A DNA stretch of 64,000 bases from Alphaproteobacteria bacterium (lineage in GTDB: Bacteria; Pseudomonadota; Alphaproteobacteria; SMXQ01), in NCBI GenBank assembly GCA_004356985.1, contig SMXQ01000078.1, positions 593-64,592 of the forward strand, written 5' to 3'. The number at the start of each line of letters is the position of its first letter. Within the stretch, counting starts at the first letter, position 1. The notes under the pieces were generated by a model that saw only the letters and a list, made by a program, of their open reading frames with translations, had not been told where the DNA came from and ran no database searches. This document shows positions 45,835 to 63,750 of the stretch, piece after piece. A program made the translations under genes and the position numbers.

Positions 45835-46596
45835 CTAAGGCAGGTAGGCGCCCCCGGTGAGGTGGATGGTCTGGCCGGTGATATAGCGCGACTGAGGCCC
45901 GCAGAGGTGGCGGACCATGGCGGCAACCTCTTCCACCCGGCCCTTGCGCCCCACCAAGGGCCGCATGCGGGCGTGATCCTGGGCGACCTCGGAGGTGGCC
46001 CCGCGGACGGTGTCGATCAGCCCCGGAACCACGCAATTCACGGTGATGCCGTCGCCGCCGAGCTCGGTGGCCAGCCCCTTGGTGAAGCCCACCAGGCCGG
46101 ACTTCGCGGTGGTCACGTGGACCCTCTCCGACGCCCCCATGTGGGCGGTCAGCCCGCCCATGGAAATGATCGTGCCGCCGCCTTGTTTTCGCATATGGGG
46201 GATCACCGCCTTGGCACAGAGAAAGGCGCCGTCGAGGATGATGGCGGTGACCTGGTGCCATTCCTCCAGGCTCATTTCGGTGATCGCCGTGCGCAGGCGA
46301 ATGGCCGCGTTGTTGACCAGGATATCGACCCGGCCCCACCGGTCGACGACCTGGCCGACCATGGCCGCCACTGCGTCGGCATCGGTGATGTCGGCTTGGA
46401 TCACCATGGCCGCGCCGCCCTGCGCCTCGATCTCGGCCTTGGCTTCCTCGGCGGCGTCGACAGAGGTCTTGACGTTGATGGCGACCTTGGCCCCCCCGTC
46501 CACCAGGTCCAGCGCGATCGCCTTGCCGATATTGCGCGCCGCCCCGGTGATGATGGCCACCTGTCCCGCCAGCTCGTTGCTCTTTCCCGTCGCCAT
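45835..46596 (-). CDS. SDR-family oxidoreductase.
   Basis: ORF 45835..46755. Start MATGKSNELAGQVAIITGAARNIGKA at 46596 after a GGGAGA RBS. Glycine-rich motif TGAARNIG. Catalytic region ...S(x)nY...K recalled. Confidence 0.85.
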   Translation of the reverse strand: MATGKSNELAGQVAIITGAARNIGKAIALDLVDGGAKVAINVKTSVDAAEEAKAEIEAQGGAAMVIQADITDADAVAAMVGQVVDRWGRVDILVNNAAIRLRTAITEMSLEEWHQVTAIILDGAFLCAKAVIPHMRKQGGGTIISMGGLTAHMGASERVHVTTAKSGLVGFTKGLATELGGDGITVNCVVPGLIDTVRGATSEVAQDHARMRPLVGRKGRVEEVAAMVRHLCGPQSRYITGQTIHLTGGAYLP

Positions 46597-46615
46597 GTTT
46601 GGTCTCCCTGCTTTC

Positions 46616-47995
46616 TTAGTTTCGGTACGCGGCAAGGCCACCCAGGTCGGGAAGCGTCCTAAGGTCACGGCAAAACGCAAGCAGCCCGGAGATCGAATCC
46701 TCGTCCATTCCCGCGTATGCCAGATTGGCCCTGAACTTGCCGACGATGTCGGCATCGGTCATGGGTTCGCGGGTCCCGCCGCGAAGCCAGGGCTGGTTTT
46801 CCTCGACCAATGTGCCGTCCTTGAGGCGGGCCAGGATGTGGCCGGTGTAATTGACCGGGTATTCGTTGGCAGGGTCGACCTGGTAGGTGATGCGCCGGGC
46901 CAGGTCCAGGACGGCGGCATCGGCGACGCGCGTTTCGGTGAACTGGGCGAGGCCGGCATCGCCGTCGATCAGCCCTACGGCGATGCAATAGGGGCCCGAG
47001 AACTTGGCGCCGTAGGCCGATGGCGGGCGATGCTTGATGGCGAGCGGTTCCCACAACCTGTGCACCGTGCCTTCACCGACCTTGCAGGTCATGGAGTCGA
47101 TATCCTCGGCTTTGATTCCGGCCTTGCCCATGCGCACCGCGCAATCCACGTAGGGCTGGCACATGGTGCCGCAGGCATAGGGCTTGAACGACAGGCGCCC
47201 GGCCTCCCAGCGGCTGCCCAGCGCGCCGGTGAGCGGCTCGAATTCGGCCTCGATGGAAGGGGCGAAGGCGGTATAGAAGCCGTGTTCGCCCTCGAACACG
47301 CTCCGCGGCCCGGCGAACCCGGCCTCGGCCATCCCCGCCGCGCGAATCCCCGCCTGGGCCGCCCAGCCGGCATGCATGCGCTTGGTCCAGGATCCGTCGG
47401 CGAGGTATTCGATGATGCCCGACGCGCAAGACCCGGCGAGGCCGAAGGCCCGCACCAGGGCCCCTTGGTCGAGCCCCAGGGTGACCCCCGCCGCCGCCGC
47501 CGCGCCCATGGCGCCGATCACGGCGGTGGGATGGAAACCCGCGGCATGGATTCCCTTGCCCGCGACCTGGCCCATGCGGCACATCACTTCGATGCCCGCC
47601 GCCATGCCGGCGAACGCCCGGGCGCCGGAAAGGCCGCGGCTCTCGGCAAGGGCCAGGACCGCCGGCACCACCACGGCGCCCGAATGCACCGGACAGCCTT
47701 CATAGGTGTTGTCGAAATCCTCGCCATGGGCGGCGGTGCCGTTGAGCATCGCCGCCGAGGCCGCGTCCATGCCGTCGGCGCCGAGCCCCAAGGCGGTCGC
47801 CCCGCCGGCGCCGCGTTCCCAGCCCTTGGCCAAGGCGGCGACGTAATCGGTCCCCCGCGCCGCATAGGCCAGGCCGACGGTGTCGATCAGGGTGTGGGTG
47901 ACGCCGAGGACCGCGTCTTCGCTAAGCGCATGGGCATCGAGCCCGGCGAGCCAGGCGGCAAGGGTTTCCGATACGGTTGCCATGGCTTCCCTCAC
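46616..47995 (-). CDS. MmgE/PrpD-family protein (2-methylcitrate dehydratase family), paralogue A.
   Basis: 459 aa with MmgE/PrpD N- and C-terminal domain patterns. Confidence 0.8.
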   Translation of the reverse strand: MREAMATVSETLAAWLAGLDAHALSEDAVLGVTHTLIDTVGLAYAARGTDYVAALAKGWERGAGGATALGLGADGMDAASAAMLNGTAAHGEDFDNTYEGCPVHSGAVVVPAVLALAESRGLSGARAFAGMAAGIEVMCRMGQVAGKGIHAAGFHPTAVIGAMGAAAAAGVTLGLDQGALVRAFGLAGSCASGIIEYLADGSWTKRMHAGWAAQAGIRAAGMAEAGFAGPRSVFEGEHGFYTAFAPSIEAEFEPLTGALGSRWEAGRLSFKPYACGTMCQPYVDCAVRMGKAGIKAEDIDSMTCKVGEGTVHRLWEPLAIKHRPPSAYGAKFSGPYCIAVGLIDGDAGLAQFTETRVADAAVLDLARRITYQVDPANEYPVNYTGHILARLKDGTLVEENQPWLRGGTREPMTDADIVGKFRANLAYAGMDEDSISGLLAFCRDLRTLPDLGGLAAYRN

Positions 47996-49401
47996 CCGGT
48001 CTGGATGGCCCGGGCGAGATCGCCCGCATCATCCAAATCGACCACGCCCCGGGCGGCGTCGATCAGCGCCGACGTCCGCGCGGGATCGAGAATGCCGGCG
48101 ACGCAGGCGGCGGTTTTCTGTTCGAGATCGTCATCGGTCATCGGCTTGTCGGGCCCGCCCCGGTAGCGTTCGTCCGCCTCCTGTACCAGGGTCTCCCCGG
48201 ATTTCAATTCCACCTCGATGCGCGACCGGATCACGTCCATGCCCTGGGATTCGATGGCCGCATCGAGGATGCAGGTCACCCGGCCCTGAAGGTCCTGCAT
48301 GGCCGCGCCCTGGACGAATTGGTCGGTGAACTCGGCACGGCCGGCGCGGCGCGCGATGACCATCATCGACAACAGCGCCGCCATGGAAAACTTGGCCTGG
48401 AGGTGGTTCTTGGCGACCGTGTACCGGATGGGGTTGAGGATGTTGGAGCCGGCGAAGAAATCGATCTTCTTCACGTCCCCCGGCTTGACATCGTTTTCGG
48501 TCACCAATTTCAATAAAGCATCCATGGACTGGTGGGTGAGGATGCCCGATGGGTAGGGTTTGATGGAAATTCCGGGATCGACCATGGACCAGGTCCTGCC
48601 GAAACCCTGGTCGAGCTTGTCCCGGTAAACGCCGCCGCCCATGACCTCCATGAACCCCCAGGGCCCGTCCAGCGCGGCGGGATCGGCGGTGAAGCCGCGA
48701 TCCGCCAAAAGCGCCGCCGTCACCCCGTTCTCCGATGCCCGGCCCACGTGCAAAGGCTTGGTCATGGTGCCGAAATTGCACCGCAGGCCGGCGCCGAAGC
48801 TCGCCGCCATGCCGAAAGCGTGGCGCAATTTATCGCCCCCGAGGCCGGCCAGCTTGGCCGCCGCCGCCATGGCGCCGAAGGTGCCCACCGTGGCCGAGGA
48901 ATGAAAGCCCTTGCGGTAATGGTCGCTCGCCATCCATTCGGAGATTTTGCTCTCCACCTCGATGCCGGCGACGAAGGCGGTGAGGAAGTCGCGGCCACTG
49001 ATCTTTCCCAGCTTCTGGACGACCGTGAGCGCGGCGGTCAACGGCGGGATGGTGGGATGGGTCAGAAGCCCGTAAATATGCCGGGGATCGCGGGAAACCT
49101 GGGTATCGTCCCAGTCATGGGCATGACCGGCGGTGCCCAGCACGCGCGCGGCCAGCGCCGCCGGCACCTTGGCCGCACCCCGGCCGAGCACCAGGGCATC
49201 GGCCCGCCCGCCCTGGTCAACCGCGTCCGCGGCCAGGATGCGTACCGATTCCTCGGCCCCGCCGGCGACAAACAGGCCGAGACCGTCCAGCACGCAGCGC
49301 CGGGCTATGGTGAGCACGTCGGCGGGCAGATCTTCGAAGCGCACGGCCTCGATGAATTGGGCGGCGTCTTCGGTAACGTGGCCGGGTTCGTTGGTTGCCA
49401 T
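47992..49401 (-). CDS. MmgE/PrpD-family protein, paralogue B.
   Basis: ORF 47992..49482. Start MATNEPGHVTEDAAQFIEAVRF at 49401 after a GAGG RBS. Tandem with paralogue A (stop/start overlap 47992-47995). Confidence 0.8.
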   Translation of the reverse strand: MATNEPGHVTEDAAQFIEAVRFEDLPADVLTIARRCVLDGLGLFVAGGAEESVRILAADAVDQGGRADALVLGRGAAKVPAALAARVLGTAGHAHDWDDTQVSRDPRHIYGLLTHPTIPPLTAALTVVQKLGKISGRDFLTAFVAGIEVESKISEWMASDHYRKGFHSSATVGTFGAMAAAAKLAGLGGDKLRHAFGMAASFGAGLRCNFGTMTKPLHVGRASENGVTAALLADRGFTADPAALDGPWGFMEVMGGGVYRDKLDQGFGRTWSMVDPGISIKPYPSGILTHQSMDALLKLVTENDVKPGDVKKIDFFAGSNILNPIRYTVAKNHLQAKFSMAALLSMMVIARRAGRAEFTDQFVQGAAMQDLQGRVTCILDAAIESQGMDVIRSRIEVELKSGETLVQEADERYRGGPDKPMTDDDLEQKTAACVAGILDPARTSALIDAARGVVDLDDAGDLARAIQTG

Positions 49402-49543
49402 GGAGAACCTCGTGACTGACTGAACGCAAAAGCGCCCGAGAAGAAAACAAACGGCGCGCCATTGCGCAACAGAAATAAGCACCCGCCACGGCGCGCCAGA
49501 TTAAGCCAGGCGCGCATCGCGGCGGCGCCCGGCCCGGCCCAAC

Positions 49544-50785: not shown

Positions 50786-50867
50786 CTAAAGCGCGCCTCC
50801 GGGGACCACCAGGCACCGGCGCCCGGGCGGCGCTCGGCGGCGCTCATGGGCCCGGTCATGGGCCCGG

Positions 50868-51965
50868 TCATGGGGATGGCCTGAAACCGGAATCGTAGAG
50901 GGCGCCGAGGTCGGTGCCGAGCCATTCCGTGGGAATCTGCCGATTGGTGCCTTCCGCCACCACCCGGTCGTAAACGATTCGCCCAGCCGCGGCGAACTGG
51001 ATGGCCAGGCCGGAATTGTTCTTGTAATAGACGATCCCCGCGCCGCCCGATCGGACGGCCACCTTGCCGGCGACGATATCCCCCAACTCGACGATGGCGT
51101 CGCGGCTGATAAGCCCCGCTTCCAAGGGCTCCAGGAGCTCGGTCTGGTCGTTGTCGATGACGCTTTCCCAGTCGTTCACCACCAATGCCGTCGATTTCGC
51201 GTAGGTGGTTTCGTCCACTTCGGTGCGTTTCTTGTTGGTGGCGTCCGAATTGGCGATGGATATCACCAGCTGCCCATCGCTCAGCCAGTCGCCATCGAAG
51301 ACCGGCTCCATGGCCGTGGTGCAGCAACAGATGACGTCGGCGCCGCGCACCACCTCGCGCGGGTCTTGGGCGGCCACCACCTCGATCTTTCCGGCCGCCT
51401 GCTTGGCCTTGGCGGCAACGAATTGCTCGCGGTGGTCGGCATTGGGGCTGAACACCACCACGCGCTCGAATTGCCGCACGCAGGTGATGGCGTCGAACGC
51501 CGCGCCGGCCTGTTTGCCGGATCCAAACAGGCCGAGGGTCTTGACGTCCTTGGGCGCGATGTGGTCCACCGCCAGCCCCGAGGTCGCCCCCACCCGCATG
51601 CCCGACAGCTTGAACTCGTGCATCAGCGCCAGCGGCTCTGCCGTTTCGATGTCGAACAGGATGACGATGCCCCAACAAAATGGCCGTGGATTTTCGTACA
51701 GGCGCCGGTTGTTGGTGGGGCTGGGGGGGACGATGATCTGGGAACCGGCCCGGACGCAGGCGATGCCCACCGAGGGCACGGCGCCCACATGCACGTTGGC
51801 GAAGTAGCGGCGGCTCGGGTCGGGATGGCGCGCCTGATAGCGCACCCTGGGCAGGTTGACGGCATCGCCAATGGCAAAATCGGCGAACGCGGTGGCCATG
51901 GCATCGATGCATTCGCGCATGGAAAGATGCCGCGCGACGTCTTCGTCGGTAATGATGACCGTCAT
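50868..51965 (-). CDS. Ornithine cyclodeaminase/mu-crystallin family protein.
   Basis: 365 aa. Rossmann motif GLFGSGKQAGAA and OCD-family overall pattern. Confidence 0.8.
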   Translation of the reverse strand: MTVIITDEDVARHLSMRECIDAMATAFADFAIGDAVNLPRVRYQARHPDPSRRYFANVHVGAVPSVGIACVRAGSQIIVPPSPTNNRRLYENPRPFCWGIVILFDIETAEPLALMHEFKLSGMRVGATSGLAVDHIAPKDVKTLGLFGSGKQAGAAFDAITCVRQFERVVVFSPNADHREQFVAAKAKQAAGKIEVVAAQDPREVVRGADVICCCTTAMEPVFDGDWLSDGQLVISIANSDATNKKRTEVDETTYAKSTALVVNDWESVIDNDQTELLEPLEAGLISRDAIVELGDIVAGKVAVRSGGAGIVYYKNNSGLAIQFAAAGRIVYDRVVAEGTNRQIPTEWLGTDLGALYDSGFRPSP

Positions 51966-52212: not shown

Positions 52213-52446
52213 ATGACATTCCTTGACAAAATAAAGGGCTGGCTCGCCGAGATCGTCGAGGTGGGCCTTCTTCTTGTCGCCCTCGGCATCGTCCTGCAAA
52301 TTCTGATCGGACCCAAGATGATGTTCCTGGGCGATGTGGTGGGCAACCTGACCGGCTTGATCGCGAAACTCGGCGAGAACGGCCTGGTCGGCTTAATCGC
52401 CATCTCCATCATTCTCTGGCTGTTCGCCAAGAGAAGCCCCGGCTGA
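52213..52446 (+). CDS. Small (77 aa) two-TM membrane protein, hypothetical.
   Basis: Strong RBS GAAGGAGGGGGG 8 nt before the ATG. Hydrophobic segments VGLLLVALGIVLQILIG and GLIAISIILWLFA. Followed by an intrinsic terminator. Confidence 0.5.
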   Translation: MTFLDKIKGWLAEIVEVGLLLVALGIVLQILIGPKMMFLGDVVGNLTGLIAKLGENGLVGLIAISIILWLFAKRSPG

Positions 52447-52537: not shown

Positions 52538-53263
52538 TCAGAAATCGCGCAGCAGGCGGCCATAGCCCGCGATGGAATCATCGACCCCGGAGCGGCGCAG
52601 CGCCTGCCAGATGATGGCCTGGATGGGCTGCACCACGGTCACGCCGAACTCCTTTTCGAGGACGTCTATGGCGCCGACCATGGCCCAGTGGGGGCAGGAG
52701 TAATAGATGGTGTCGACGTCGGGGAATTTGTCCATGATTTCGCGCCCCAGCGCCGGGGCCACCTCGTCGGGGACCATGCCGAGCTCGATGAACTTGGCCT
52801 CCACCCGGACGCAGCCCTGGGGGTCGAGCCCGAATTCGCGCATGTAGCCCATGTGGCGCTCGTCGTGGGATTCATCGTAGGGCTGGACGATGCCCACCTT
52901 GTTGCAGCCCAGCGTTTTGAAGGCGTCGCGCTGGGACGAGGCCGAGGTGCTGATGGGGATGCCGACCTCTTTTTCGGTCTCGGCGATCAGCACGTCGATA
53001 TTGTCGAAGCCGCGGCTGACGTTGATGGGCAGGCCGCCGAAGACCAGGATATCGACCCCCGCCCGGGCCATGATCTTGGCCGCCTTAAGGCTCGCGTCGT
53101 AGGACCGGTCGACCTCTTCCTCGGTGCGCTCCACCAGGGGCAGGGTATGGACTACCAGGGTCACGCCATCGGGCACGATCTTGTAAAACTCGTAAGGGAA
53201 TACCTCCGTTGCCGAAGGCGGCGACGTATAGCCGATCCTGGCGCGGTGACCGTACATGGGCAT
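52538..53263 (-). CDS. Arylmalonate decarboxylase/maleate isomerase-family (Asp/Glu/hydantoin racemase superfamily) protein, paralogue 1, Cys-containing.
   Basis: 241 aa. Aligns with Bordetella AMDase as recalled: RIGYTSPP vs IGMIVPP, GGLPINVSRG vs MGTSLSFYRG, YYSCPHW vs LLSCGG, GYGRLLRDF vs GYGRLFDES. Confidence 0.75.
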   Translation of the reverse strand: MPMYGHRARIGYTSPPSATEVFPYEFYKIVPDGVTLVVHTLPLVERTEEEVDRSYDASLKAAKIMARAGVDILVFGGLPINVSRGFDNIDVLIAETEKEVGIPISTSASSQRDAFKTLGCNKVGIVQPYDESHDERHMGYMREFGLDPQGCVRVEAKFIELGMVPDEVAPALGREIMDKFPDVDTIYYSCPHWAMVGAIDVLEKEFGVTVVQPIQAIIWQALRRSGVDDSIAGYGRLLRDF

Positions 53264-53329: not shown

Positions 53330-54118
53330 CTAGATCTCGGGCATTAATCCTTCTTCCCGCAGGAAATCAAGGACCAGGGCATCGAACCCGGCGGGGTCTT
53401 CGATCATGCAGGCGTGGCCGGCGCCAGGCAATACTTCATGCCGCGCTTGGGGGATCAGCGAAGCGGTTTCCGCGCCCCGGGGCCGGGCGCCGTCGAATTC
53501 GCCGTTGATGATCAGGGTCGGCAAGGGGTAGGCGGCGAGGTGAGGCCGCAGGTCCGCCGCCGCCAGCGCCTCGAAGGTCCGGATGATGGCCGCGGGATGG
53601 TGGCGCCGGTCGCGCTCGGCGAACCCGGCGAACAGGTATTTACCCAGGACCGAGGCGGCGAACCCGTCGGTCACGCCGTAGTCCATGTGGGCCCGGCGGT
53701 AGGGGGAGAATTGCTCTTCCCGGTATCCGGTGATCCGCCGCGACATGTCCTGGGGGCCCGAATTGCCGCCCACCTGGATCACCGCCCGGAAGCGGTCGGG
53801 GAACAGGGCGCCCAGCATCAGCGCCGTCTTGGAGCCGATGGAGCATCCCATGACCACGGCCGGCCCAAGGCCGAGGTCGTCCATGACGCCGAGCACGTCG
53901 CGGCAGATGTCCTCCAGGGTGAACGGCGTGGTCACCTTTTCGCTGCGTCCCCAGCCGCGAAGATCGACCGAGACCACCGTGAACCAGGTCGAGAAATGGG
54001 CCGCCTGGTACAGCCACAGCGTATTGTCGAAGGGAATGGCATGGATCAGCACCAGGGGCGGCCCGGCGCCGGTGACCTCGAAATGGACGGCGATGGAGTT
54101 GGCGTGGCTTTTCGGCAT
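53330..54118 (-). CDS. Alpha/beta hydrolase.
   Basis: ORF 53330..54232. Probable start MPKSHANSIAVHFEVTGAGPPLVLIHAI at 54118. Nucleophile elbow GCSIG. The upstream 114 nt of the track ORF is the tandem-repeat region. Confidence 0.8.
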   Translation of the reverse strand: MPKSHANSIAVHFEVTGAGPPLVLIHAIPFDNTLWLYQAAHFSTWFTVVSVDLRGWGRSEKVTTPFTLEDICRDVLGVMDDLGLGPAVVMGCSIGSKTALMLGALFPDRFRAVIQVGGNSGPQDMSRRITGYREEQFSPYRRAHMDYGVTDGFAASVLGKYLFAGFAERDRRHHPAAIIRTFEALAAADLRPHLAAYPLPTLIINGEFDGARPRGAETASLIPQARHEVLPGAGHACMIEDPAGFDALVLDFLREEGLMPEI

Positions 54119-54130
54119 GTTCGGCCCCTC

Positions 54131-54210
54131 CCCTTTCCCGGCCCTTTCCCGGCCCTTTCCAGGGCCTTGCCCGGGCCTTTCCAGGGCCTTTCCAGGGCCT
54201 TGCCCGGGCC
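54131..54210. repeat. About seven tandem copies of an 11-nt unit (CGGGCCTTTCC / AGGGCCTT[T/G]CC) in the divergent promoter between the alpha/beta hydrolase and the tctC-like gene.
   Basis: Read directly. The period is about one helical turn. It sits 10-90 nt upstream of the hydrolase start. Confidence 0.6.
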
Positions 54211-54336: not shown

Positions 54337-55458
54337 ATGATCACCACCCGAATCTTTTTGCGCCTAGGCGCCGGCGTGCTCGCCCTGGCCGCGGCCGGGA
54401 CCGCCAATGCCGACGCGCTCAGCGATTTTTACAAAGGCAAGCGCCTGACCATGTTCGTCGGTTCCGGGGTCGGCGGCGGCTACGACACCTATTCCAGGAC
54501 CCTCGCCCGGCATTACAACAAATACGTCCCCGGCAAGCCGAGGATGCTGGTCAAGAACATGCCGGGCGCCGGCGGCCTGCGGGTCACCAATTACATGTAC
54601 AACAAGGCCAAGCGCGACGGCTCGGTCATCGCCTCGACCTTCAACACCATGATGCTGGAGCCCCTGATCGGCAACCGGGGCGCCAAGTTCGACGTCTTCA
54701 AGTTCAATTGGCTGGGATCCATCGGCAAATTGCAGGCGGTCTGCGTCACCTGGCACACCAGCCCCATCAAGACCCTGGCCGACGCCAAGGGCAAGGTTCT
54801 CACCGTCTCGGCCACCGGCGCCACCGGCAATTCGGCGAAGATGCCGCGCATCTTCAACTGGGCCGTGGGCACCAAGTTCAAGGTGATCCAGGGTTATTCC
54901 ACCTCGGGCTCGCGCCTGGCCCTGGAACGCGGCGAGGTCGACGGCATCTGCGGGTTGGGTTACTCGACCCTGCTGGCCTCGAACCCCGACTGGATCGCCA
55001 AGAAAAAACTCAACTTCCTCGCCCAGATCGGCCTTTACAAGCATCCCAAGCTGGCCCAGGTGCCGATGATCCTGCAGGATATCAAGGATGAGAGAACGCG
55101 CAAGATTGTCGAGTTGATCCTCATCCAGCAGGAACCGGGCCGCCCCTATATCGCCCCCCCGGGGGTTCCCGCCGAGCGCGTCAAGGTCCTGACGTCGGCC
55201 TTCAAATCCGCCATCGAGGATCCCGCCTTCCTGGCCGACGCCAAGCGCCTCAAGCTCGAGATCACCTATCTGGGCCCCAAGACCATCCGCGCCCTGATGA
55301 CCCGCGCCTACGCCAACCCAAGGGACATCGTCGAGGGCGCGGCCAAGCTGGTCGGCCGTCCCGCCAAGGGCGTGGTGACCAAGTGTTCCAAGTACACCAA
55401 GTCGGCCAAGTGGTGCCGCAAGAAAAAGAAGAAAAAGAAGAAAAAGAAGGCGTCCTAA
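54337..55458 (+). CDS. tctC: Bug/TctC-family periplasmic tricarboxylate-binding receptor with a C-terminal Cys-containing poly-lysine tail.
   Basis: Signal peptide MITTRIFLRLGAGVLALAAAGTANA. TctC/Bug fold pattern. Tail ...KCSKYTKSAKWCRKKKKKKKKKKAS. Confidence 0.8.
   Translation: MITTRIFLRLGAGVLALAAAGTANADALSDFYKGKRLTMFVGSGVGGGYDTYSRTLARHYNKYVPGKPRMLVKNMPGAGGLRVTNYMYNKAKRDGSVIASTFNTMMLEPLIGNRGAKFDVFKFNWLGSIGKLQAVCVTWHTSPIKTLADAKGKVLTVSATGATGNSAKMPRIFNWAVGTKFKVIQGYSTSGSRLALERGEVDGICGLGYSTLLASNPDWIAKKKLNFLAQIGLYKHPKLAQVPMILQDIKDERTRKIVELILIQQEPGRPYIAPPGVPAERVKVLTSAFKSAIEDPAFLADAKRLKLEITYLGPKTIRALMTRAYANPRDIVEGAAKLVGRPAKGVVTKCSKYTKSAKWCRKKKKKKKKKKAS
55420..55449. repeat. Codon-level simple repeat (AAGAAAAAG)x3+ encoding the poly-Lys tail.
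   Basis: Read directly; 30 nt of AAG/AAA codons. Confidence 0.6.
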
Positions 55459-55542
55459 GGCGCAGCACCAAGCAAAACCCCCGGTTCCGGCCGGGGGTTT
55501 TTTCTGTCGCTCTTCCGTCGCCGCGTCGCCGCGCGGGGCGTA

Positions 55543-56262
55543 TCAGAATTCGCGGAGCAAGCGGCCGAAGCCTGCGATGGGCTCGGTGATGCCGGCGGTC
55601 CGAAGCGCCTTCCAGACGATCGCCTGCTGCGACGTCATCACCGACACGCCCAATTCCGCCTCGATCTCGTCGATGGCATGGGCGATCGCCCAATGGGCGC
55701 TTGCCAGGTGGATGCAGTCGGCCTCGGGGTTTTCCCGCATCACCTGGCGGGCGGCGGTCAAGGCGAGCTCGCAGGGGATTTGGCCGACTTGGTGGTCGGC
55801 GAAATCGAGGCCGATGACGCCCGCCGCCTCGACCCCCATGTTGCGGATCGACTGTTTGTGGCGCGCGTTGTCGGCCGGCTCGTAACAATGCACCTGGGCC
55901 ACCTTCTTGGCGCCCAGCGCCGCCAGCGCCTCGGTCTGGGCCTGGGTCGAGGTCACCACCTTGGTGCCGATCTCGGCGGCCAGGGTGGCGCAGATCGCCG
56001 CCAGGTTCCCGACCCCCTGGGATTGGTTGATGGGGTTGCCGCCCAGCACCACCACGTCGGCGCCGGCGCGCGCCATGTAACGGGCGGCCTCGAGGCTGGC
56101 GGCGTGGCTCGCCGCGATCTCCGCCGGCGCCCGGGTGCGGACCTCCAGGGTCTTGATCAGCAGCGTCACGCCCGCCGGCACCATCTTGTAGAACTCGTAA
56201 CAAAAGGTCTCCGTCACGTAAGGCGGTGAGCAATAACCGATGCGCGCGCGGTGTCCGTACAT
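55543..56262 (-). CDS. AMDase/maleate-isomerase-family protein, paralogue 2, Ser variant.
   Basis: Start MYGHRARIGYCSPP at 56262; track ORF 55543..56967 over-extends. Motif IHLASAHW sits where paralogues 1 and 5 have S/GCPHW. Confidence 0.75.
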   Translation of the reverse strand: MYGHRARIGYCSPPYVTETFCYEFYKMVPAGVTLLIKTLEVRTRAPAEIAASHAASLEAARYMARAGADVVVLGGNPINQSQGVGNLAAICATLAAEIGTKVVTSTQAQTEALAALGAKKVAQVHCYEPADNARHKQSIRNMGVEAAGVIGLDFADHQVGQIPCELALTAARQVMRENPEADCIHLASAHWAIAHAIDEIEAELGVSVMTSQQAIVWKALRTAGITEPIAGFGRLLREF

Positions 56263-56276
56263 GGCCCGAACGCGCC

Positions 56277-57002
56277 CTAGAATTCCCTGAAAAGGCGCCC
56301 GAATCCTTCGATGGGCTCGGTGATGCCGGCGGTGCGGAAGGCCTTCCAGACGATGGCTTGCTGCGACGTCATGACCGAGACCCCCAATTCCGCCTCGATC
56401 CGGTCGATGAATGGGGCGGTGGCCCAATGGGCGGAGCCCAGATGGATGGTGTCGGCATCGGGGTTTTCCTCCTTCACCCGGCGCGACAGGGTCAACGCGA
56501 GTTCGCCGTCGAGGCCGCCGATATGCTGGAAGTCGGACCCGCAGGCAAGGACGCCGGCCGGCTCGAAGCCTAGGTTGCGCATGGAATTGGCGTGGCGTTC
56601 TTTCTCCGATTCCTCGTAGCAAAAGACCTGGGCGACCTTTTTGGCGCCGAGACAGGTCAGCGCCTCCCTCTGGGCCTCGGTGGAGGTGATCACCTTGGTG
56701 CCGATCTTGGCGGCGAGCGCGTCGGTCACGTCGGCGATATTCTCCATGCCCAGGCTCTGGTTGATGGGATTGCCGCCCAAAACCACCACGTCGGCGCCGG
56801 CATCCGCCATGTATTGGGCGGCGATCAGGCTGCGCTGATGGCTGGCCGCTACCTCTTCCTTGGTCCGGGTCCTGATCTCGAGGGTGGTGATCAAGAGCGT
56901 CACCCCTTCGGGCGCCATCATGTAGAACTCTTGGGGGAAGGTCTCGGTCACGAAGGGCGGCGAGCAATAGCCGATGCGGGCGCGGGATCCAAGCATGGTC
57001 AT
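56277..57002 (-). CDS. AMDase/maleate-isomerase-family protein, paralogue 3, Ser variant.
   Basis: Start MTMLGSRARIGYCSPP at 57002. Motif IHLGSAHW. Confidence 0.75.
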   Translation of the reverse strand: MTMLGSRARIGYCSPPFVTETFPQEFYMMAPEGVTLLITTLEIRTRTKEEVAASHQRSLIAAQYMADAGADVVVLGGNPINQSLGMENIADVTDALAAKIGTKVITSTEAQREALTCLGAKKVAQVFCYEESEKERHANSMRNLGFEPAGVLACGSDFQHIGGLDGELALTLSRRVKEENPDADTIHLGSAHWATAPFIDRIEAELGVSVMTSQQAIVWKAFRTAGITEPIEGFGRLFREF

Positions 57003-57025
57003 GGGGCGTTCTCTTTCTCTCGGCT

Positions 57026-57751
57026 TCAGAATTCGCGGAACAGGCGGCCGAAGCCTTCGATGGGCTCGGTGATGCCGGCGGTCCGGAGCGCCTTCCAGAC
57101 GATGGCCTGCTGGGAGTTCATGACCGAAACATCGAGCTCGTTTTCGATCTTGTCGATGGCGTGGGCGGTGGGCCAATGGGCGGAGGCGAGATGGATGCAA
57201 TCGGCGTCGGGGTAGGCGTCCTTGAGCCGCTTGGCGATCTCGAACGCGGCATCGGTGGGAATCTTGCCGTAGCCCAAAAGCTGGTATCCCTCCAACGAGG
57301 CGACGCCGACCGATTCCACGCCCATGTTCTCCATCTGCTGGCGGTGGCGGTCGTCGTGCTGGGAACCCGAGGCGTGGGCCGAAGCCACCTTCTTGACGCC
57401 GAGCTTTTCCATGGCCTCAAGCTGGCACAGCGTCGAGGCCACCACCGAGGTTCCGATCTCGGCCGCCAAGTCGGCGCAAATGCCGGGCAGGTTTTCGATG
57501 CCGCGCGATTGGTTGACGGGATTGCCGCCGAGAACCACCACGTCGGCCCCGGCCCCGGCCATGTACTTGGCCGCCTCAATGGAGCGGTCGTGGCTGCCGT
57601 CGAAGGCTTGGCTGTTGTATTCCAGCCCCACCTCGAGGGTGGTCAGCAGCAGCGAAACGCCGTCGGGCACCATCTTGTAGAACTCATAGACGAAGACCTC
57701 GGTGACCACCGGCGGCGAGCAATAGCCGATGCGAGCGCGGTGTCCGTACAT
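57026..57751 (-). CDS. AMDase/maleate-isomerase-family protein, paralogue 4, Ser variant.
   Basis: 241 aa; MYGHRARIGYCSPP; motif IHLASAHW. Confidence 0.75.
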   Translation of the reverse strand: MYGHRARIGYCSPPVVTEVFVYEFYKMVPDGVSLLLTTLEVGLEYNSQAFDGSHDRSIEAAKYMAGAGADVVVLGGNPVNQSRGIENLPGICADLAAEIGTSVVASTLCQLEAMEKLGVKKVASAHASGSQHDDRHRQQMENMGVESVGVASLEGYQLLGYGKIPTDAAFEIAKRLKDAYPDADCIHLASAHWPTAHAIDKIENELDVSVMNSQQAIVWKALRTAGITEPIEGFGRLFREF

Positions 57752-57796
57752 GGGGCTCCTCCTCCCTTAATTTGACTCGCTGGGCCCTCGGCGGCC

Positions 57797-58534
57797 CTAA
57801 AAGTCCCTCAGCAGCCGGCCGAAGCCCTCGATTCTATCATCGATGCCGGTCTGCCGCATGGCCTCCCAGGCGATGGCCTGAAGCGAGGTCATGACGGAAA
57901 TACCGAACTCGTCCTCCAGCGGTTGGATGGCGTCGATCACGGTCCAATGGGGACAACCGAAATACAGCGTGTCGGCTTCCGGGTGCGCCGCCATGGCGGC
58001 CCGGCCCCATTCCAGCGCCCGGCCGGGGGCCAGGGTGCCCAGCGCCACCAGGGAGGACCCCCCGGCATGGACCCCCACCGCCTCGAGGCCGAAGAAATCT
58101 TCCATGGTGCGAACATGGCGCGGGTTCTGATCTTCTTCGAAGGGATGCACCATGGCGACCTTCTTGGAGCCCAGCGCGGCGAAGGCATGGACCTGGGCCA
58201 GGGCCGAACACGACATTTTCACGCCGATCTCACCCTCCAGCTTGGCCATCAGCCCGGCGACCGTATCATCGCCCTTGGAGATGTTGATGGGCAGCCCGCC
58301 CAGCAGCACCAGGTCGGCGCCGGCCCGGGCCATGGTGTGGGCGGATTCGAGCGATATGGCGTAGCACTTCTCGACGTCTTCCTTGGACCGGTCGCCCAGC
58401 GGCAGGGTGATCATCATCAGCGACACGCCATCGGGCACGATGCGGTACCAGTCGATGGGATAGACCTCTGTGGTGACCGCGGCGACGGTGTAGCCGATAC
58501 GCGCCCGCGCCCCGTGAATTCGTTGCCAGTCCAT
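57797..58534 (-). CDS. AMDase/maleate-isomerase-family protein, paralogue 5, Cys-containing.
   Basis: Probable start MDWQRIHGARARIGYT at about 58534. Motif LYFGCPHW. Confidence 0.7.
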   Translation of the reverse strand: MDWQRIHGARARIGYTVAAVTTEVYPIDWYRIVPDGVSLMMITLPLGDRSKEDVEKCYAISLESAHTMARAGADLVLLGGLPINISKGDDTVAGLMAKLEGEIGVKMSCSALAQVHAFAALGSKKVAMVHPFEEDQNPRHVRTMEDFFGLEAVGVHAGGSSLVALGTLAPGRALEWGRAAMAAHPEADTLYFGCPHWTVIDAIQPLEDEFGISVMTSLQAIAWEAMRQTGIDDRIEGFGRLLRDF

Positions 58535-58698
58535 GACCGCCTCCCTGATGATGGTTTTTTCCACCATCGCCCAGATCGCCGCCCGGCGCAACATCTGGGC
58601 GCAAGAAGGGGACGGGCGGCGGCGGTTTGTTCTATAACGGGAGGCGAGCGGCGAAGCGGGCAGACGCCCCGCCCGGGAATATGAATAGGGAGGCGAGG

Positions 58699-59319
58699 AT
58701 GATCGATCTTTATACCTGGACCACGGACAACGGCTACAAGGCGCGCCAGGCGGCGGAAGAGAGCGGGTTGGACTACACCCTGAAGCCGGTGAACCTGCGC
58801 AAGAAGGCGCAGTTCGATCCTGAGTTCCTGAAAATCAGCCCGGGACACAAGATTCCCGCCCTGGTCGACCATGACGGGCCGGGCGGGCAGAGGGTGACGC
58901 TCTGTGAATCCGGCGCCATCCTCAAATACCTCGGCGAAAAGTCGGGCACCGGGCTCTATCCCGACGACCCCATGGCGCGCATCAAGGTCGACCAATGGCT
59001 GTTTTACGGCTCGGCCACCTTCACCACCCTGGCCCAGCAATACGGCCTGTTCTGGGGGCGTTTCGATGAGGACGTGCCGGCGGCCAAGAAGCATTACGCC
59101 GACGTGCTCCGCGACATGTTCGCCACCTTGGACCGGCATCTGGCCGACAACGAATACATGGCCGGCGCATATACCGTCGCCGACATTTCCATGTATCCCG
59201 ACACCCACGTCCACGGCGCCGGCGATATCGGCCTCGACGCCTATCCCAACCTCGCCCGTTGGCACGATGCCATCGCCGCCCGCCCCGCCGTCGTCCGCGC
59301 CTGGGAGCCGTTCTCCTGA
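58699..59319 (+). CDS. Glutathione S-transferase family protein.
   Basis: ORF 58627..59319. Start MIDLYTW at 58699 after a GGGAGGCGAGG RBS. GST N-terminal thioredoxin-like and C-terminal helical pattern. Confidence 0.8.
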   Translation: MIDLYTWTTDNGYKARQAAEESGLDYTLKPVNLRKKAQFDPEFLKISPGHKIPALVDHDGPGGQRVTLCESGAILKYLGEKSGTGLYPDDPMARIKVDQWLFYGSATFTTLAQQYGLFWGRFDEDVPAAKKHYADVLRDMFATLDRHLADNEYMAGAYTVADISMYPDTHVHGAGDIGLDAYPNLARWHDAIAARPAVVRAWEPFS

Positions 59320-59401: not shown

Positions 59402-59812
59402 TCAGTCCGCAAACTTGGCGAGCTTGAGCGACGCCGAATTGATGCAGTAGCGCAGGCCCGTGGGCTTGGGCCCGTCGGGGAAGACGTGGCCGAGATGGGC
59501 GCCGCAGCGCGCGCACAGGGCCTCGGTCCGGGACATGAAGAGCGCGTTATCCTCTTCGGCCCTAACCGCCGCTTCAGCCACCGGCTTGGTGAAGCTGGGC
59601 CAGCCGGTGCCGGATTCGAACTTGTCTTGGGATGAAAACAGCGGCTCTCCGCAACAGACGCAGGCGTAGGTGCCGGCATCGTGGCAATCGTGGTAGCGGC
59701 CGGTGAAGGCCGGCTCGGTGCCCTTCTCCCGGGTGACGTGGAATTCCTGGTCCGAGAGCTGGGCCCGCCACTGGGTATCGGTCTTGGTGATCTTTTCCGC
59801 CATGTTTTCCAA
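59402..59812 (-). CDS. msrB: Peptide-methionine (R)-S-oxide reductase.
   Basis: 136 aa. Zn-binding CVCCGEPLF...CARCGAHLGHVF and the catalytic RYCINSASL motif. Confidence 0.92.
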   Translation of the reverse strand: MENMAEKITKTDTQWRAQLSDQEFHVTREKGTEPAFTGRYHDCHDAGTYACVCCGEPLFSSQDKFESGTGWPSFTKPVAEAAVRAEEDNALFMSRTEALCARCGAHLGHVFPDGPKPTGLRYCINSASLKLAKFAD

Positions 59813-60011: not shown

Positions 60012-62336
60012 TTATCCTTTTGCCAGCGCCGCCTTGACCCGCGCCGGGGTCATCGGCGCGGTCCGCATCCGCACCCCGGTGGCATCGTAGAAGGCGTTGG
60101 CGATGGCGCCCGACACCGGCCGGGTGGACGGTTCGCCCGCCCCCATGGACGGCTTGTCGGGCCGATTGATCAGCACCACGTCGACGGCTTCGGGCGTATC
60201 GGGGCTTTCGGCGATGGGATAGGTATCCCAATCGATGCTGGTCACCTCGTCGGGGCCGAACATCACCTCCTCGTAGATGACGCGGCTGAGCGCCATAACC
60301 ACATTGCCCTGGATGGTGAGGGTCAGCCCATCGGGGTTGATGATCAGGCCGCATTCGTGGGAGACGGTGAATTTGCGTACCCAGATTTGGCCGGAACGCG
60401 TGTCCACCTCGACCTCGGCGATAACCGCCACCTTGGACCCCGAGCGCCGCGCGTAGGCGATGCCCCGCCCGGAGACGGTGTTTTTGCCGCCCTGGCCCTT
60501 GCGCGGACCGACGCGCGGCTTCCACCCGGCCTTTTCCGCCACCGCCGTGATCAACGCACGGTCGCGTTTGGTGCGCAGATACTTGAGCCGGTATGCCACC
60601 GGGTCCATCCCCGCCGCTTCGGCCAGTTCATCGTGGAACTGTTCCGAGGCGAACTGGATCTGGGGACCGATGGGATCACGCAGATGCGAGGTCCTGAGCG
60701 GCGAGTTGCGGTCCAGGAACGGCGGAATCACCTTCCAGCCCAAACGGTAATCGGGGATGTTGTAAATGTTTTCCGGCTCGCTGAAGAATTTGCGCGGCTT
60801 CAGCTTCGCCCCCAGCGCCTGGCCCGCCAGGTTGTCCCGCGGCTGGGATTCATTGGACCGCACGTTTTGGCGGTCGAACGCCTTGGAGATGAATTCATAG
60901 GCGATCACGTTGCCCTGGGCATCCAGCCCACCCCGGCAGAAATGCACGCTTGCCGGCGCTTTGGGGTCCCAGCCCGTGCCTTCGTGGCGCATCCCCTGGA
61001 CGCGCACCGGCTTGCCCACTTCCTTGGACAGCAGGGCTGCCTGCATGGCGGCATCGCCGGCATCGTTACGGCCGTAGGACCCCGGTCCCGGCACCCAGAT
61101 TCCCCGCACGCTGCCCTTGGGCATCTTGAGCATCTTCGCGACGCCGTAGGAGGTGTAATGGGATTTCTGCGACCCGGTCCACAACATCACCGGATTGGCG
61201 CCGGCGTCGACCACGGCGCAGGCCGGGCCCATGGAGGCATGGGACTGGAAGGGGAATTCGAATTCCGCGGCCAACACCTTGGCGGCGCCGGCTAGCGCCT
61301 TGTCCACATCGCCGCCCTTGAACCTGTTCTTTTGCTTGATGACCGGCGCGTTGCGGATGTGGTCGTAGAGATCCTCCTGCCGGCCAAACGGCTTCTTGCC
61401 GCCGCCGGTCCAATGGACCTTGAGGTCCCGGGCCGCCTGCACGGCGTCCCATTCATTGTCCGCGACCACGGCGATGAAGTCCTTCTTCTGGACCACCCGC
61501 ACGCCCTTGATGTGCTTGATCGAAGAGGCGTCATACCCCTTGAGCTTGGAGCCCGCCCGGGTGGGATGGATGACCCGCCCATGGACCATGCCGGGCACCT
61601 TGATATCGGTGACGAAGTCGGTGGTGCCGAACACCTTGCCGGCGACGTCGATCCTGGGGAAGGGCTTGCCGACGATGCGGTAATCCTTGACCGCCTTGGG
61701 CTTGGCCTTGCCGTGGGAATAGAGCCGGTTGCCCAGCTTCTTGTTCCAGGTGAGCTTGTGGTTGAAGTAGTTGCCCTGGAGGATATCCGCGTAGGAGACC
61801 TTCTTGGACATATCGCCCTTGACGCTGACCACCCCGTCATTGACCTCCAGCCGGGCGGCTTTGACCCCCAACCTCTTGGCGGCTTCCTCCACCAGGACGC
61901 GCCTAGCCTCGGCGGCGATGACGCGCATGGTCCTGCCGCCCCACTTGACCCCGAACGAGCCCGATGCCCCGCCCTGGTTGACGCTGGTGCCGGTGTCCGA
62001 CATCAGGGTGGTCACCTTCTCGAAGGCGACGTCGAGCTCTTCGGCGATGATCTGGGAAATCGCCACGTCCAACCCCTGGCCCATGTCCATCTTGCCGAAG
62101 AACGCCGTGACCTTGCCGTCGGCCCTGATGGCGATGAAGCTGTCCAACTGGTCGGGGATGAGCTTCGGCTTGACCTTCGAACCGAAACCCATGGCCTTGG
62201 CCCCCCTGGTCTTAGCCGCGGCCTTTTTGCTGCCCACCACGGGTTGGGCCCCCATGACCACCACCAGGGCGCCCGCGCCCTTGAGAAGGTCGCGGCGGGA
62301 AACTTCGAAATCTTTCGGCGATATCATATTCGTCAT
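60012..62336 (-). CDS. Molybdopterin-dependent aldehyde/isoquinoline-type oxidoreductase large (MoCo-binding) subunit with a Tat signal.
   Basis: Start MTNMISPKDFEVSRRDLLKGAGALVVV (twin-arginine) at 62336 after a GGGAGGG RBS. Xanthine-dehydrogenase-family MoCo domain pattern, about 775 aa. Confidence 0.85.
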   Translation of the reverse strand: MTNMISPKDFEVSRRDLLKGAGALVVVMGAQPVVGSKKAAAKTRGAKAMGFGSKVKPKLIPDQLDSFIAIRADGKVTAFFGKMDMGQGLDVAISQIIAEELDVAFEKVTTLMSDTGTSVNQGGASGSFGVKWGGRTMRVIAAEARRVLVEEAAKRLGVKAARLEVNDGVVSVKGDMSKKVSYADILQGNYFNHKLTWNKKLGNRLYSHGKAKPKAVKDYRIVGKPFPRIDVAGKVFGTTDFVTDIKVPGMVHGRVIHPTRAGSKLKGYDASSIKHIKGVRVVQKKDFIAVVADNEWDAVQAARDLKVHWTGGGKKPFGRQEDLYDHIRNAPVIKQKNRFKGGDVDKALAGAAKVLAAEFEFPFQSHASMGPACAVVDAGANPVMLWTGSQKSHYTSYGVAKMLKMPKGSVRGIWVPGPGSYGRNDAGDAAMQAALLSKEVGKPVRVQGMRHEGTGWDPKAPASVHFCRGGLDAQGNVIAYEFISKAFDRQNVRSNESQPRDNLAGQALGAKLKPRKFFSEPENIYNIPDYRLGWKVIPPFLDRNSPLRTSHLRDPIGPQIQFASEQFHDELAEAAGMDPVAYRLKYLRTKRDRALITAVAEKAGWKPRVGPRKGQGGKNTVSGRGIAYARRSGSKVAVIAEVEVDTRSGQIWVRKFTVSHECGLIINPDGLTLTIQGNVVMALSRVIYEEVMFGPDEVTSIDWDTYPIAESPDTPEAVDVVLINRPDKPSMGAGEPSTRPVSGAIANAFYDATGVRMRTAPMTPARVKAALAKG

Positions 62337-62350
62337 CTTCCTGCCCTCCC

Positions 62351-62827
62351 CTAAGACGCCATGGCTTTGGCGGCGCGCTTGACCGCTTTCAGGATGGCGA
62401 AATGCGTCCCGCAGCGGCACTTGAGACCCTTGAGCCCGGCACGGATCTGCTTGTCGGACAGCTTCGGATTCTTGTTGAGCATTTCCGCCGCCGTCATGAT
62501 CCAGCCGTTGATGCAATAGCCGCACTGGGGCACTTGTTCTTCCACGAAGGCGGTTTGCACCGGATGCGGTTTTTCGGGCGTGCCCAGGCCCGTCAGGGTC
62601 ACCACCTTCTTGCCGCGAACCGAGCCCACCGGCGTCACGCAGGACCGAATGGCCTTGCCGTTGACATGCACCGTGCAGGCGCCGCACTGGGCCAGGCCGC
62701 AGCCGAAATGGGGATTGTTCAAGCCGATATCGTTCCTGAGCGCGTAGAGGAGCGGCATATCGGGGTCGACGGTGACGGTGAAGTGACCGCCGTTTACATT
62801 GAGTCTCATGCGTTGAGGTTTCGCCAT
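62351..62827 (-). CDS. (2Fe-2S)-binding small subunit of the molybdenum oxidoreductase.
   Basis: 158 aa. Two [2Fe-2S] motifs CGLAQCGACTV and QCGYCINGWIM...C.C. Confidence 0.88.
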   Translation of the reverse strand: MAKPQRMRLNVNGGHFTVTVDPDMPLLYALRNDIGLNNPHFGCGLAQCGACTVHVNGKAIRSCVTPVGSVRGKKVVTLTGLGTPEKPHPVQTAFVEEQVPQCGYCINGWIMTAAEMLNKNPKLSDKQIRAGLKGLKCRCGTHFAILKAVKRAAKAMAS

Positions 62828-63120: not shown

Positions 63121-63750
63121 TCAAGCTCGGGCCGAGAAACCGGCGATGTCCTCGGAGGTGTCGAGATCGACCAGGGTTCCGGTGCCGGCCATGGCAATTT
63201 CGGCCACCAATTCGGGGTGCGCCGCGATCACCGTTTTGGCCCCACTGTCGCCGGTGAGGGCCAGCAGTTCGGGGAAAAACCGGCGGGCGAACAGCACCGG
63301 GTTGCCCCGGCGCCCGCCCGCTTTGGGCACGCAAATGGCGGCGCCCCCTTGGGCGTCGAAGGCGGCGATCAATAGGTCGATCTCGGCCGCCTTGATGGCC
63401 GGCATGTCGCCCAGGCAGATCAGCGCCGCCGCCACGTCGCCGGGCAGCGCCTTGATTCCGGCAATGATGGAACCGGCCATGCCCTGGGCGAAATCGGCGT
63501 TATGGGCGAATTCCACACCCTGGCCGGCCAGCGCCGCGCAGACCTCGGCGCTTTGATGCCCGGTCACGACGATGATGGGAAACGCGTTCGAGCCCGTGAT
63601 GCGGGCAAGGGCGCGGGCGACCATGGGGATGCCGCCGATGGGCGCCAAAAGCTTGTTTGTGGCGCCCGCCCGGGTGCTTCGTCCGGCGGCGAGGACGACG
63701 GCCGCGATGCGCGGCGCCGGGTGGTCTTTAGGCGGACTGTTTTTTGCCAT
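63121..63750 (-). CDS. mocA: Molybdenum cofactor cytidylyltransferase / nucleotidyltransferase (MocA-like).
   Basis: 209 aa; IAAVVLAAGRSTRAG... MobA-like NTP-transferase motif. Confidence 0.75.
   Translation of the reverse strand: MAKNSPPKDHPAPRIAAVVLAAGRSTRAGATNKLLAPIGGIPMVARALARITGSNAFPIIVVTGHQSAEVCAALAGQGVEFAHNADFAQGMAGSIIAGIKALPGDVAAALICLGDMPAIKAAEIDLLIAAFDAQGGAAICVPKAGGRRGNPVLFARRFFPELLALTGDSGAKTVIAAHPELVAEIAMAGTGTLVDLDTSEDIAGFSARA

Follow-up and report, generated by a model that had tools for sequence, protein, structure and literature searches.

Serine in place of the predicted catalytic cysteine in an array of arylmalonate decarboxylase-like paralogues on an alphaproteobacterial contig

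We analysed a 64,000-nucleotide stretch of alphaproteobacterial DNA (GenBank assembly GCA_004356985.1, contig SMXQ01000078.1, positions 593 to 64,592), here called the window, which contains five genes of the arylmalonate decarboxylase (AMDase)/maleate isomerase family. A search of the whole window with the family hidden Markov model recovered exactly these five genes, designated copies A to E (Table 1). The encoded proteins all have the two-domain alpha/beta fold and match Pfam family PF17645 (Amdase) at 64.4-75.8 bits, the gathering cut-off being 25.9 bits. Together with template modelling (TM) scores of 0.8-0.86, these matches bear out the family assignment made in a first-pass annotation of the window. 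Four of the genes form an operon in the order E-D-C-B, with E first, B last and spacers of 45, 23 and 14 nt, as densely packed as first described, and copy A lies 2279 nt from copy B. Copy B faces a convergent gene for a divergent TctC/Bug-like periplasmic binding protein. Contigs that match the window come from uncultured Alphaproteobacteria (e.g., GCA_022573795.1). Related contigs and metagenome-assembled genomes (MAGs) are numbered L001 onwards; contigs L001-L006 have the same 245-aa gene call for copy E.

Table 1. Coordinates of the five AMDase-like genes and of neighbouring features in the window.
Feature	Positions	Strand	Product or structure	Residue aligned with AMDase Cys188 (codon)	Profile match	Remarks
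Copy E	57797-58534	minus	245 aa, YFGCPHW	Cys194 (TGT, 57953-57955)	PF17645, 65.1 bits	
Copy D	57026-57751	minus	241 aa, HLASAHW	Ser190 (TCC, 57182-57184)	PF17645, 74.4 bits	
Copy C	56277-57002	minus	241 aa, HLGSAHW	Ser190 (TCC, 56433-56435)	PF17645, 64.4 bits	
Copy B	55543-56262	minus	239 aa, HLASAHW	Ser188 (AGC, 55699-55701)	PF17645, 67.4 bits	
Copy A	52538-53263	minus	241 aa, YYSCPHW	Cys190 (TGC, 52694-52696)	PF17645, 75.8 bits	
Binding protein	54337-55458	plus	divergent TctC/Bug-like periplasmic solute-binding protein, 373 aa, signal peptide		PF03401, 36.7 bits (cut-off 27)	
Hydrolase	53330-54118	minus	alpha/beta hydrolase (PcaD/esterase-like)		PF00561, 75.5 bits	directly upstream of copy A
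OCD protein	50868-51965	minus	ornithine cyclodeaminase/mu-crystallin (OCD) protein		PF02423, 142.8 bits	below every NCBIfam equivalog cut-off
77-aa open reading frame	52213-52446	plus	hydrophobic protein			between copy A and the OCD gene, on the opposite strand; called in L001-L003, L007 and L009-L011
Hairpin	55474-55501	none	GC-rich, AAAAACCCCCGG-CCGGAA-CCGGGGGUUUU, A-run and U-run at the flanks			between the convergent copy B and binding-protein genes

The first-pass annotation had placed a Ser at the position of the catalytic Cys188 of AMDase in copies B, C and D. Three alignments (phmmer against the AMDase chains in the PDB, MAFFT and hmmalign) agree on this: the Ser of B, C and D and the Cys of A and E fall on Cys188, and none of them places the Ser elsewhere. 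With phmmer, '..ihlaSahw' of copy D and '..iyysCphw' of copy A align with '..illsCggl' of AMDase, and 'vlgGnp' and 'vfgGlp' align with 'slmGts'. The Gly-Gly that was reported at the site of the first Cys is likewise present in all five copies. Its second Gly corresponds to AMDase Gly74, a position that is Gly throughout the five copies and the 364 distinct sequences of the clade to which they belong (see below). The two columns are anchored by maleate-isomerase-like relatives with two Cys, which place these in columns 74 and 188 of the same profile alignment; in the MaiA-like sequence P0247 (107 bits to 2XEC) the first-site Cys aligns with the Cys of the 'YAC' motif of N. farcinica maleate isomerase. 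Copy A has AMDase as its best PDB match (57.7 bits, phmmer). In an AlphaFold2 model of copy D (pLDDT 93.9), Ser190 is located two residues past a beta-strand and ahead of a helix. Cys188 of AMDase likewise follows a strand and precedes a helix. Foldseek gave TM scores of 0.82-0.86 for this model against 4IX1 and AMDase and of about 0.8 against maleate isomerase. By position, Ser in copies B, C and D truly replaces the sole catalytic Cys.

Further polar residues are invariant in the family or nearly so, namely E19, N78, S104, H190 and W191 in AMDase numbering and Q215 in the numbering of copy D. Pro76 is also near-constant within the close clade. In the model of copy D these residues sit at the C-terminal ends of predicted strands, which is the active-site side in this fold. 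By contrast, AMDase positions 43, 48, 126 and 159 are constant inside each paralogue group but differ between groups; copy D, for example, has Tyr at position 43, Phe at 48 and Ser or Ala at 126.

The likeness to AMDase that was claimed at first holds for family and fold, and does not extend to AMDase itself. The NCBIfam model for the decarboxylase (arylmal_decarb, NF052327) gives 67-76 bits for the five copies versus an equivalog cut-off of 225 bits. From the 12 criteria for true AMDases (Maimanakos et al., 2016; PMC4996985), only G74 is found in all five copies; P14-P15 occurs in A-D, Y126 in A-C and C188 in A and E. The RIGY..PP N-terminus noted in the first annotation is accordingly that of A-D, as copy E has the loop RIGYTVAA with A-A in place of the two Pro, and the C-terminus given there as GYGRL reads GFGRL in four of the five. 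In all five copies the dioxyanion-hole residues T75/S76 of AMDase are replaced by [L/N]-Pro and G189 by Pro or Ala. Its hydrophobic pocket is altered as well: V43 is R (Y in D), Y48 is V, I or F, and positions 156/159 are variable. The AMDase motifs LMGTSLSF (72-79) and ILLSCGGL (184-191) are absent and the copies have [LF]GG[NL]P[IV]N[QIV] and I[HY][LY][AGS][SC][AP]HW.

The other characterized families give a similar picture. Maleate cis-trans isomerase (EC 5.2.1.1) has two Cys, whereas all five copies have Gly at the first site and three have Ser at the second. The Gly at the first site also departs from the two-base Asp/Glu, hydantoin and allantoin racemases, and the scores for PF01177 (23-28 bits) are under its cut-off of 31. 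The EutA model TIGR02990 yields 48-68 bits, with an equivalog cut-off of 318 bits, and neither EutB, EutD, EutE nor a pyridoxal phosphate-dependent dehydratase, ectoine hydrolase or deacetylase was found in the cluster. Automatic annotation would have the copies as ordinary AMDases or maleate isomerases that tolerate a Ser. The Pfam Amdase matches, the place of AMDase among the best PDB matches and the label 'maleate (cis-trans) isomerase' that JGI gives to homologues agree with this, but the low NF052327 scores, the failure of most of the 12 criteria and the Gly in place of the first Cys make it very improbable. On profile scores and active-site residues we classify copies A-E as members of an uncharacterized clade rather than as AMDases, maleate isomerases or EutA, and we place this clade in the AMDase/maleate isomerase branch of the Asp/Glu racemase superfamily.

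Among known proteins, AMDase of Bordetella bronchiseptica (EC 4.1.1.76; 3DG9/3IP8/2VLB) shares with the copies the Pfam family, the fold, Gly74, a single second-site residue 188, P14-P15 (in A-D), the C-terminal G[YF]GRL and a gene association with binding proteins of the tripartite tricarboxylate transporter (TTT)/Bug type. It differs in an identity of only about 25%, in having G190/L191 where the copies have a near-constant His-Trp and, for B, C and D, in the residue at 188. Maleate cis-trans isomerase (MaiA/NicE/Iso; 2XEC, 4FQ7) has the same fold (TM about 0.8) and acts on a small dicarboxylate, but identity is 16-17% and its nucleophile is the first-site Cys, a Gly in the five copies. The best solved match of the B/C/D profile is OPAG_01669 of Rhodococcus opacus PD630 (4IX1, a structural-genomics protein; 87 bits, TM 0.83-0.86). 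This protein, too, naturally lacks the Cys, having Gly at position 188, although at 25% identity it has SGAAVH instead of S/C-x-H-W. The 'unbalanced' racemases EcL-DER/YgeA (Thr83/Cys197) also have a natural hydroxyl for a thiol at a catalytic site, a replacement that gives one-directional chemistry (cited in PMC12661438). In those racemases the hydroxyl is at the first site and the second-site Cys is kept, whereas the present copies have Gly at the first site and, in the Ser forms, a hydroxyl in place of the sole Cys.

The copies in the array are not recent duplicates. Copies B, C and D share 58-70% identity with each other, with synonymous differences (pS) of 0.42-0.49 per site, and both identity clustering and a neighbour-joining tree join each copy to orthologues of its own, which come from other metagenomes and MAGs and have 72-94% identity (80-87% for copy E in L016, L009 and L007). 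Ratios of nonsynonymous to synonymous substitution rates (dN/dS), computed versus orthologues in three MAGs, were 0.05-0.30 for all five copies. They did not differ between the Ser copies (0.09-0.30) and the Cys copies (0.05-0.24); per copy they were 0.05-0.24 for A, 0.09-0.23 for C, 0.12-0.30 for D, 0.10-0.18 for E and 0.27 for B (versus L016). Among the 364 distinct sequences, residue 188 and His190 are kept in at least 90% of each orthologous group, and Trp191 likewise except in the A-type, which has Tyr or Trp. The D-type group comprises 47 sequences, the B-type 15 and the C-type 27, the latter with GSAHW kept. The Ser codon is mostly TCN in all groups, with AGC occurring sporadically, as in copy B of the window. 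All three Ser copies are paralogues of long standing that evolve under constraint. The conservation of residue 188 and the dN/dS values indicate that their Ser is kept by selection. The tandem layout and a copy number that varies between related MAGs could suggest a recent duplication in decay, with the Ser copies becoming pseudogenes. This is refuted by the divergence between the copies, by their orthologues elsewhere, by the dN/dS values and by open reading frames (ORFs) that are intact in many independent assemblies, so that we give it next to no probability. The subfunctionalization proposed in the first-pass annotation fits these results, since every paralogue goes back to an old group of orthologues in which a distinct pocket signature is conserved.

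The clade is marked by an N-terminal RARIGY, the first-site motif GG-x-P-x-N, the second-site motif [C/S/N/Q]-x-H-W and a C-terminal G[FY]GRL, all present in the five copies, and by a divergent TctC-like binding protein encoded nearby. It occurs almost only in uncultured Alphaproteobacteria. A HMMER scan of 1.84 billion representative sequences returned 157 clusters (50% identity) at E <= 1e-30 and 1789 at E <= 1e-10. Position 188 is variable: the top 120 homologues of copy D include 70 with Ser, 39 with Cys, 16 with Asn and one with Ala, and loci from GTDB genomes add Gln. Over 101 full-length representatives of the 50% clusters the residue was Cys in 67, Ser in 10, Gly in 10, Ala in 3 and Asn in 2, and position 74 was Gly in 87 and Cys in 11. 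The replacement of Cys by Ser is real, as first reported, and not peculiar to the array, as site 188 is C, S, N, Q or A across the clade. In the close clade the His at +2 and the Trp at +3 are near-constant (Tyr for Trp in part of the A-type). Soil and aquatic metagenomes are rich in Ser forms: a Ser-type query matches 1430 clusters (90% identity) at E <= 1e-10, with the site residue checked in a subset, and these clusters are labelled only 'maleate isomerase' or 'hypothetical'. The literature yielded no characterized natural Ser at site 188, the related papers being on AMDase engineering, OpaE and EcL-DER only, and neither a search for the biochemistry of any clade member nor one under PF17645 found a report.

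Two superclades can be distinguished. The 'PHW' superclade consists of the A-type (SCPHW), the E-type (GCPHW) and a large Ser group, the F-type (PSPHW). The 'AHW' superclade contains the D-type (ASAHW), to which an Asn group (ANAHW) is sister, as well as the B-type (ASAHW), the C-type (GSAHW) and a Cys group (PSCAHW). Whether Ser variants cluster in the phylogeny had been raised at the outset; they do so as several Ser clades (B, C, D and the large F-type). The number of AHW-type copies per locus is one to three among related MAGs. The F-type is the sole family copy within about 10 kb in around 45 species-level MAG loci, and D-type, N-type and basal SAHW forms also occur as the sole family copy over this distance. 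Members of the AHW superclade with 54-64% identity to copy D were also found in MAGs of Chloroflexi (L026, L027) and Gemmatimonas (L032), with Asn (HFANGHW) and Cys (HPSCAHW) forms, which suggests horizontal gene transfer. A tblastn search with copy D against 72,556 plasmids had no match at E <= 1e-10. The conserved Cys of RIGYCSPP was considered as a substitute thiol for the AHW copies and rejected, as the Ser F-type has Thr there.

The first-pass annotation had pointed to a Bug/TctC neighbour and compared this with the surroundings of AMDase homologues. The TTT association is indeed documented for true AMDases (PMC4996985, PMC5812351), and an orthologue of the binding protein in the window is present in 64 of 90 loci, a partnership conserved throughout the clade. 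These orthologues have 27-100% identity, mostly at least 44%, and most are encoded within 0-2.5 kb of an Amdase-family gene. The protein in the window is a divergent TctC, with BugE (2dvz) as its best PDB match at only E = 0.006. In F-type loci a binding protein of the same family is encoded immediately downstream of the enzyme and the remaining neighbourhood varies. Since the binding protein is all that the F-type loci share, the conserved unit is an enzyme with an orphan binding protein. Oxidative pyrimidine degradation via ureidomalonate was rejected as context; it is unsupported by the surroundings, with only the binding protein shared among F-type loci.

Some observations concern the binding protein itself. 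Its C-terminus has Cys-x10-Cys followed by a poly-Lys tail, RK10AS (55420-55449), encoded by (AAGAAAAAG)x3.3. The near-identical contigs differ in the number of Lys in the tail, with 7 in L001 and 10 in L002 and L006. The Lys-rich tail is kept in orthologues of the clade of the window and absent from the F-type partners. It is possible that the tract is prone to slippage or that it serves as a membrane or envelope anchor. A TctA homologue is encoded at 726-1949 on the minus strand, at a distance of about 50 kb from the gene for the orphan binding protein, with 32% identity to the TctA beside an F-type locus. The query used detected no TctB in the window.

We see an even chance that the five genes encode anciently diverged, one-sided, cofactor-free enzymes for one-base proton transfer on imported carboxylates. 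Each copy would act as an autonomous, cytoplasmic, cofactor-independent enzyme on a small carboxylate brought in by the neighbouring TctC-like protein, and the reaction may be a decarboxylation-protonation, a tautomerization or a 1,3-shift. The Gly at the first site of all members excludes the mechanism of two-Cys racemases and that of maleate isomerase. The acid/base would be the [Cys or Ser]-x-His pair, in which the near-constant His at +2 may bear much of the catalytic load, and this would explain why C, S, N or Q is tolerated at 188. As the conserved pocket residues differ between paralogues, these probably act on different substrates or stereoisomers. An Arg at the position of AMDase V43, present in A, B, C, E and the F-type, would bind rather than destabilize a carboxylate, which tentatively points to dicarboxylate substrates and argues against ground-state destabilization as in AMDase, although this loop is less securely aligned. 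Both the enzyme activity of the clade and its substrate class are predicted here from residues and gene neighbourhood. A further-reaching proposal is that the classical thiol of this fold is dispensable, that the near-invariant His, backed by the Trp, is the acid/base and that residue 188 only tunes reactivity or specificity. We put this forward tentatively and regard it as somewhat doubtful.

The pairing of Ser or Cys with a near-invariant His could also be read as a nucleophile-base pair used in covalent catalysis, either hydrolase- or amidase-like or by addition as in maleate isomerase. Interchange of Ser and Cys next to such a His is typical of nucleophile-base pairs, maleate isomerase with the same fold forms a succinyl-Cys intermediate (2XED), and family-invariant Glu residues could complete a triad. 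However, Asn, Gln and Ala at 188 are kept in groups of their own and cannot be nucleophiles, and the nucleophile of maleate isomerase is the first-site Cys, which is Gly here. Covalent catalysis of this kind is therefore rather improbable.

The first-pass annotation had left room for non-catalytic paralogues, and more specifically B, C and D could be inactive subunits or regulators in a hetero-oligomer with the Cys copies E or A, with the array encoding one complex. The tight packing of the four-gene operon with its 14-45 nt spacers would fit such a complex, the E-type and D-type, often with the F-type, co-occur in order in many MAGs, and Cys-to-Ser mutants of characterized superfamily members lose at least 95% of their activity (PMC12661438). 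On the other hand, the F-type, basal SAHW, D-type and Asn-type forms occur as a lone copy beside the same binding protein, from which the Ser and Asn forms are probably autonomous proteins and not dead subunits. In addition, dN/dS is equal for Ser and Cys copies, the family-invariant polar residues are all kept, and one to three Ser copies per locus are a poor fit to a complex of fixed composition. Non-catalytic Ser copies are disfavoured by these data, and we consider a hetero-oligomer unlikely.

Several points weigh against one-base proton transfer by autonomous Ser enzymes. Firstly, in OpaE only 4.8% of the activity is left in C90S and at most 0.3% in C199S (PMC12661438). The costs of such replacements in relatives imply that Ser may be a poor acid/base unless the chemistry differs, and the tight packing of the operon fits a hetero-oligomer as well. 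The C188S variant of AMDase itself is reportedly strongly impaired. Secondly, the pocket loop (AMDase 36-48) is aligned less securely than the two catalytic motifs. Lastly, the catalytic role suggested for the His at +2 draws on its position, its conservation and an analogy with the glutamate racemase MurI. In MurI the second site reads Cys-Thr-His and the His at +2 is thought to assist the Cys. This resembles the His two residues past the second-site residue in [C/S]-x-H-W, with an equivalence by position and not by superposition, but MurI is a distant two-Cys racemase and the profile match to 2gzm has only E = 0.67. Position 190 is R, H, N or Q in the wider family, so that the His is a feature of the clade and not a rule of the family.

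The locus represents neither a new kind of system nor demonstrated new chemistry. What appears to be new is the natural Ser at the second site in place of the sole Cys; a first-site hydroxyl with the Cys kept was already known from EcL-DER (PMC12661438). AMDase is a valued biocatalyst, and its natural substrate and physiological role are stated to be still unknown (PMC4996985). If the natural Ser forms are active, they would have chemistry independent of a thiol and could serve as oxidation-insensitive scaffolds for engineering. A His-centred acid/base, if true, would represent a new mode of catalysis for a cofactor-free fold. The strictly co-inherited orphan binding protein would offer an experimental route to what AMDase-like proteins act on in nature, and one organism allows the comparison of several paralogues that differ in their pockets. 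Should the Ser copies instead be inactive partners, this fold would have its first described pseudoenzyme subunits.

Copy A was reported first as a fifth copy 2.3 kb away from the array. It is a paralogue at the distance given above, but belongs to a separate conserved module with the hydrolase and the OCD protein. The order hydrolase, copy A, OCD was found in at least 17 distinct MAG loci, with the OCD gene always 55-620 nt downstream of the A-type gene. The hydrolase scores 116 bits against TIGR02427, under the cut-off of 256 bits, and its best PDB match is 2xua, a 3-oxoadipate enol-lactonase. Its ORF is open to 54232 and the start at about 54118 follows from 262-aa gene calls in relatives. 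An Amdase-like gene beside an OCD-family gene resembles EutA/EutC. However, the EutC model scores 92.6 bits on the OCD protein of the window versus a cut-off of 471 bits, and in the window the accompanying genes encode an alpha/beta hydrolase, an MFS_3 transporter and a TctC-like binding protein. EutA itself is a proposed racemase only and was never assayed (PMC5924519). Chemistry of the hydroxyectoine type with EutA/EutC was rejected on the failed tests for Eut membership. The strongly hydrophobic 77-aa ORF inside the module had no match in Pfam and recurs at the corresponding position in every related contig examined.

Folding of the 76-nt stretch between the operon and the binding-protein gene (55465-55540) gave a minimum free energy of -36.1 kcal/mol and included the hairpin of Table 1 as an 11-bp stem. 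The position and flanks of this hairpin suggest that it is probably a bidirectional intrinsic terminator, although the consensus terminator scan did not list it. A promoter scan gave matches at background level only. The divergent intergenic region between the hydrolase and binding-protein genes contains a tandem repeat (54132-54210) of 11 nt with a 33-nt super-period, CCTTTCCCGGG x7.2, which may serve as an array of operators or be a hypervariable spacer. Another repeat, perfect and with a 12-nt unit (TCATGGGCCCGG x2.6, 50844-50874), is located in the interval from the OCD gene to the MFS_3 gene. It falls within a 29-aa ORF that was called in related contigs.

The wider surroundings include IorAB-like, XdhC/MobA, MsrB, glutathione S-transferase (GST), MFS_3, GntR and MmgE/PrpD genes, which are linked to the locus only in the lineage of the window. 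An IorA/IorB-like molybdenum hydroxylase is encoded on the minus strand (62351-62827 and 60012-62354) with a MobA-like gene at 63121-63750, and the related contigs L001, L007 and L009 have XdhC genes and another IorAB pair in addition. The combination of molybdenum hydroxylase, deformylase-like hydrolase and maleate isomerase brought up nicotinate/picolinate-type degradation as context, which was rejected because the Nic tests fail and the hydroxylase linkage is confined to this lineage. Genes for MsrB (59402-59812) and GST (58627-59319) are located between the molybdenum hydroxylase genes and the array. Downstream of MFS_3 are tandem MmgE/PrpD genes on the minus strand (46616-47995 and 47992-49482) with a 4-nt overlap, followed by a short-chain dehydrogenase/reductase gene (45835-46755) and a GntR/UTRA regulator gene (44935-45669). 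The MmgE/PrpD pair is absent from L007 and L009 and present in the closest relatives of the window.

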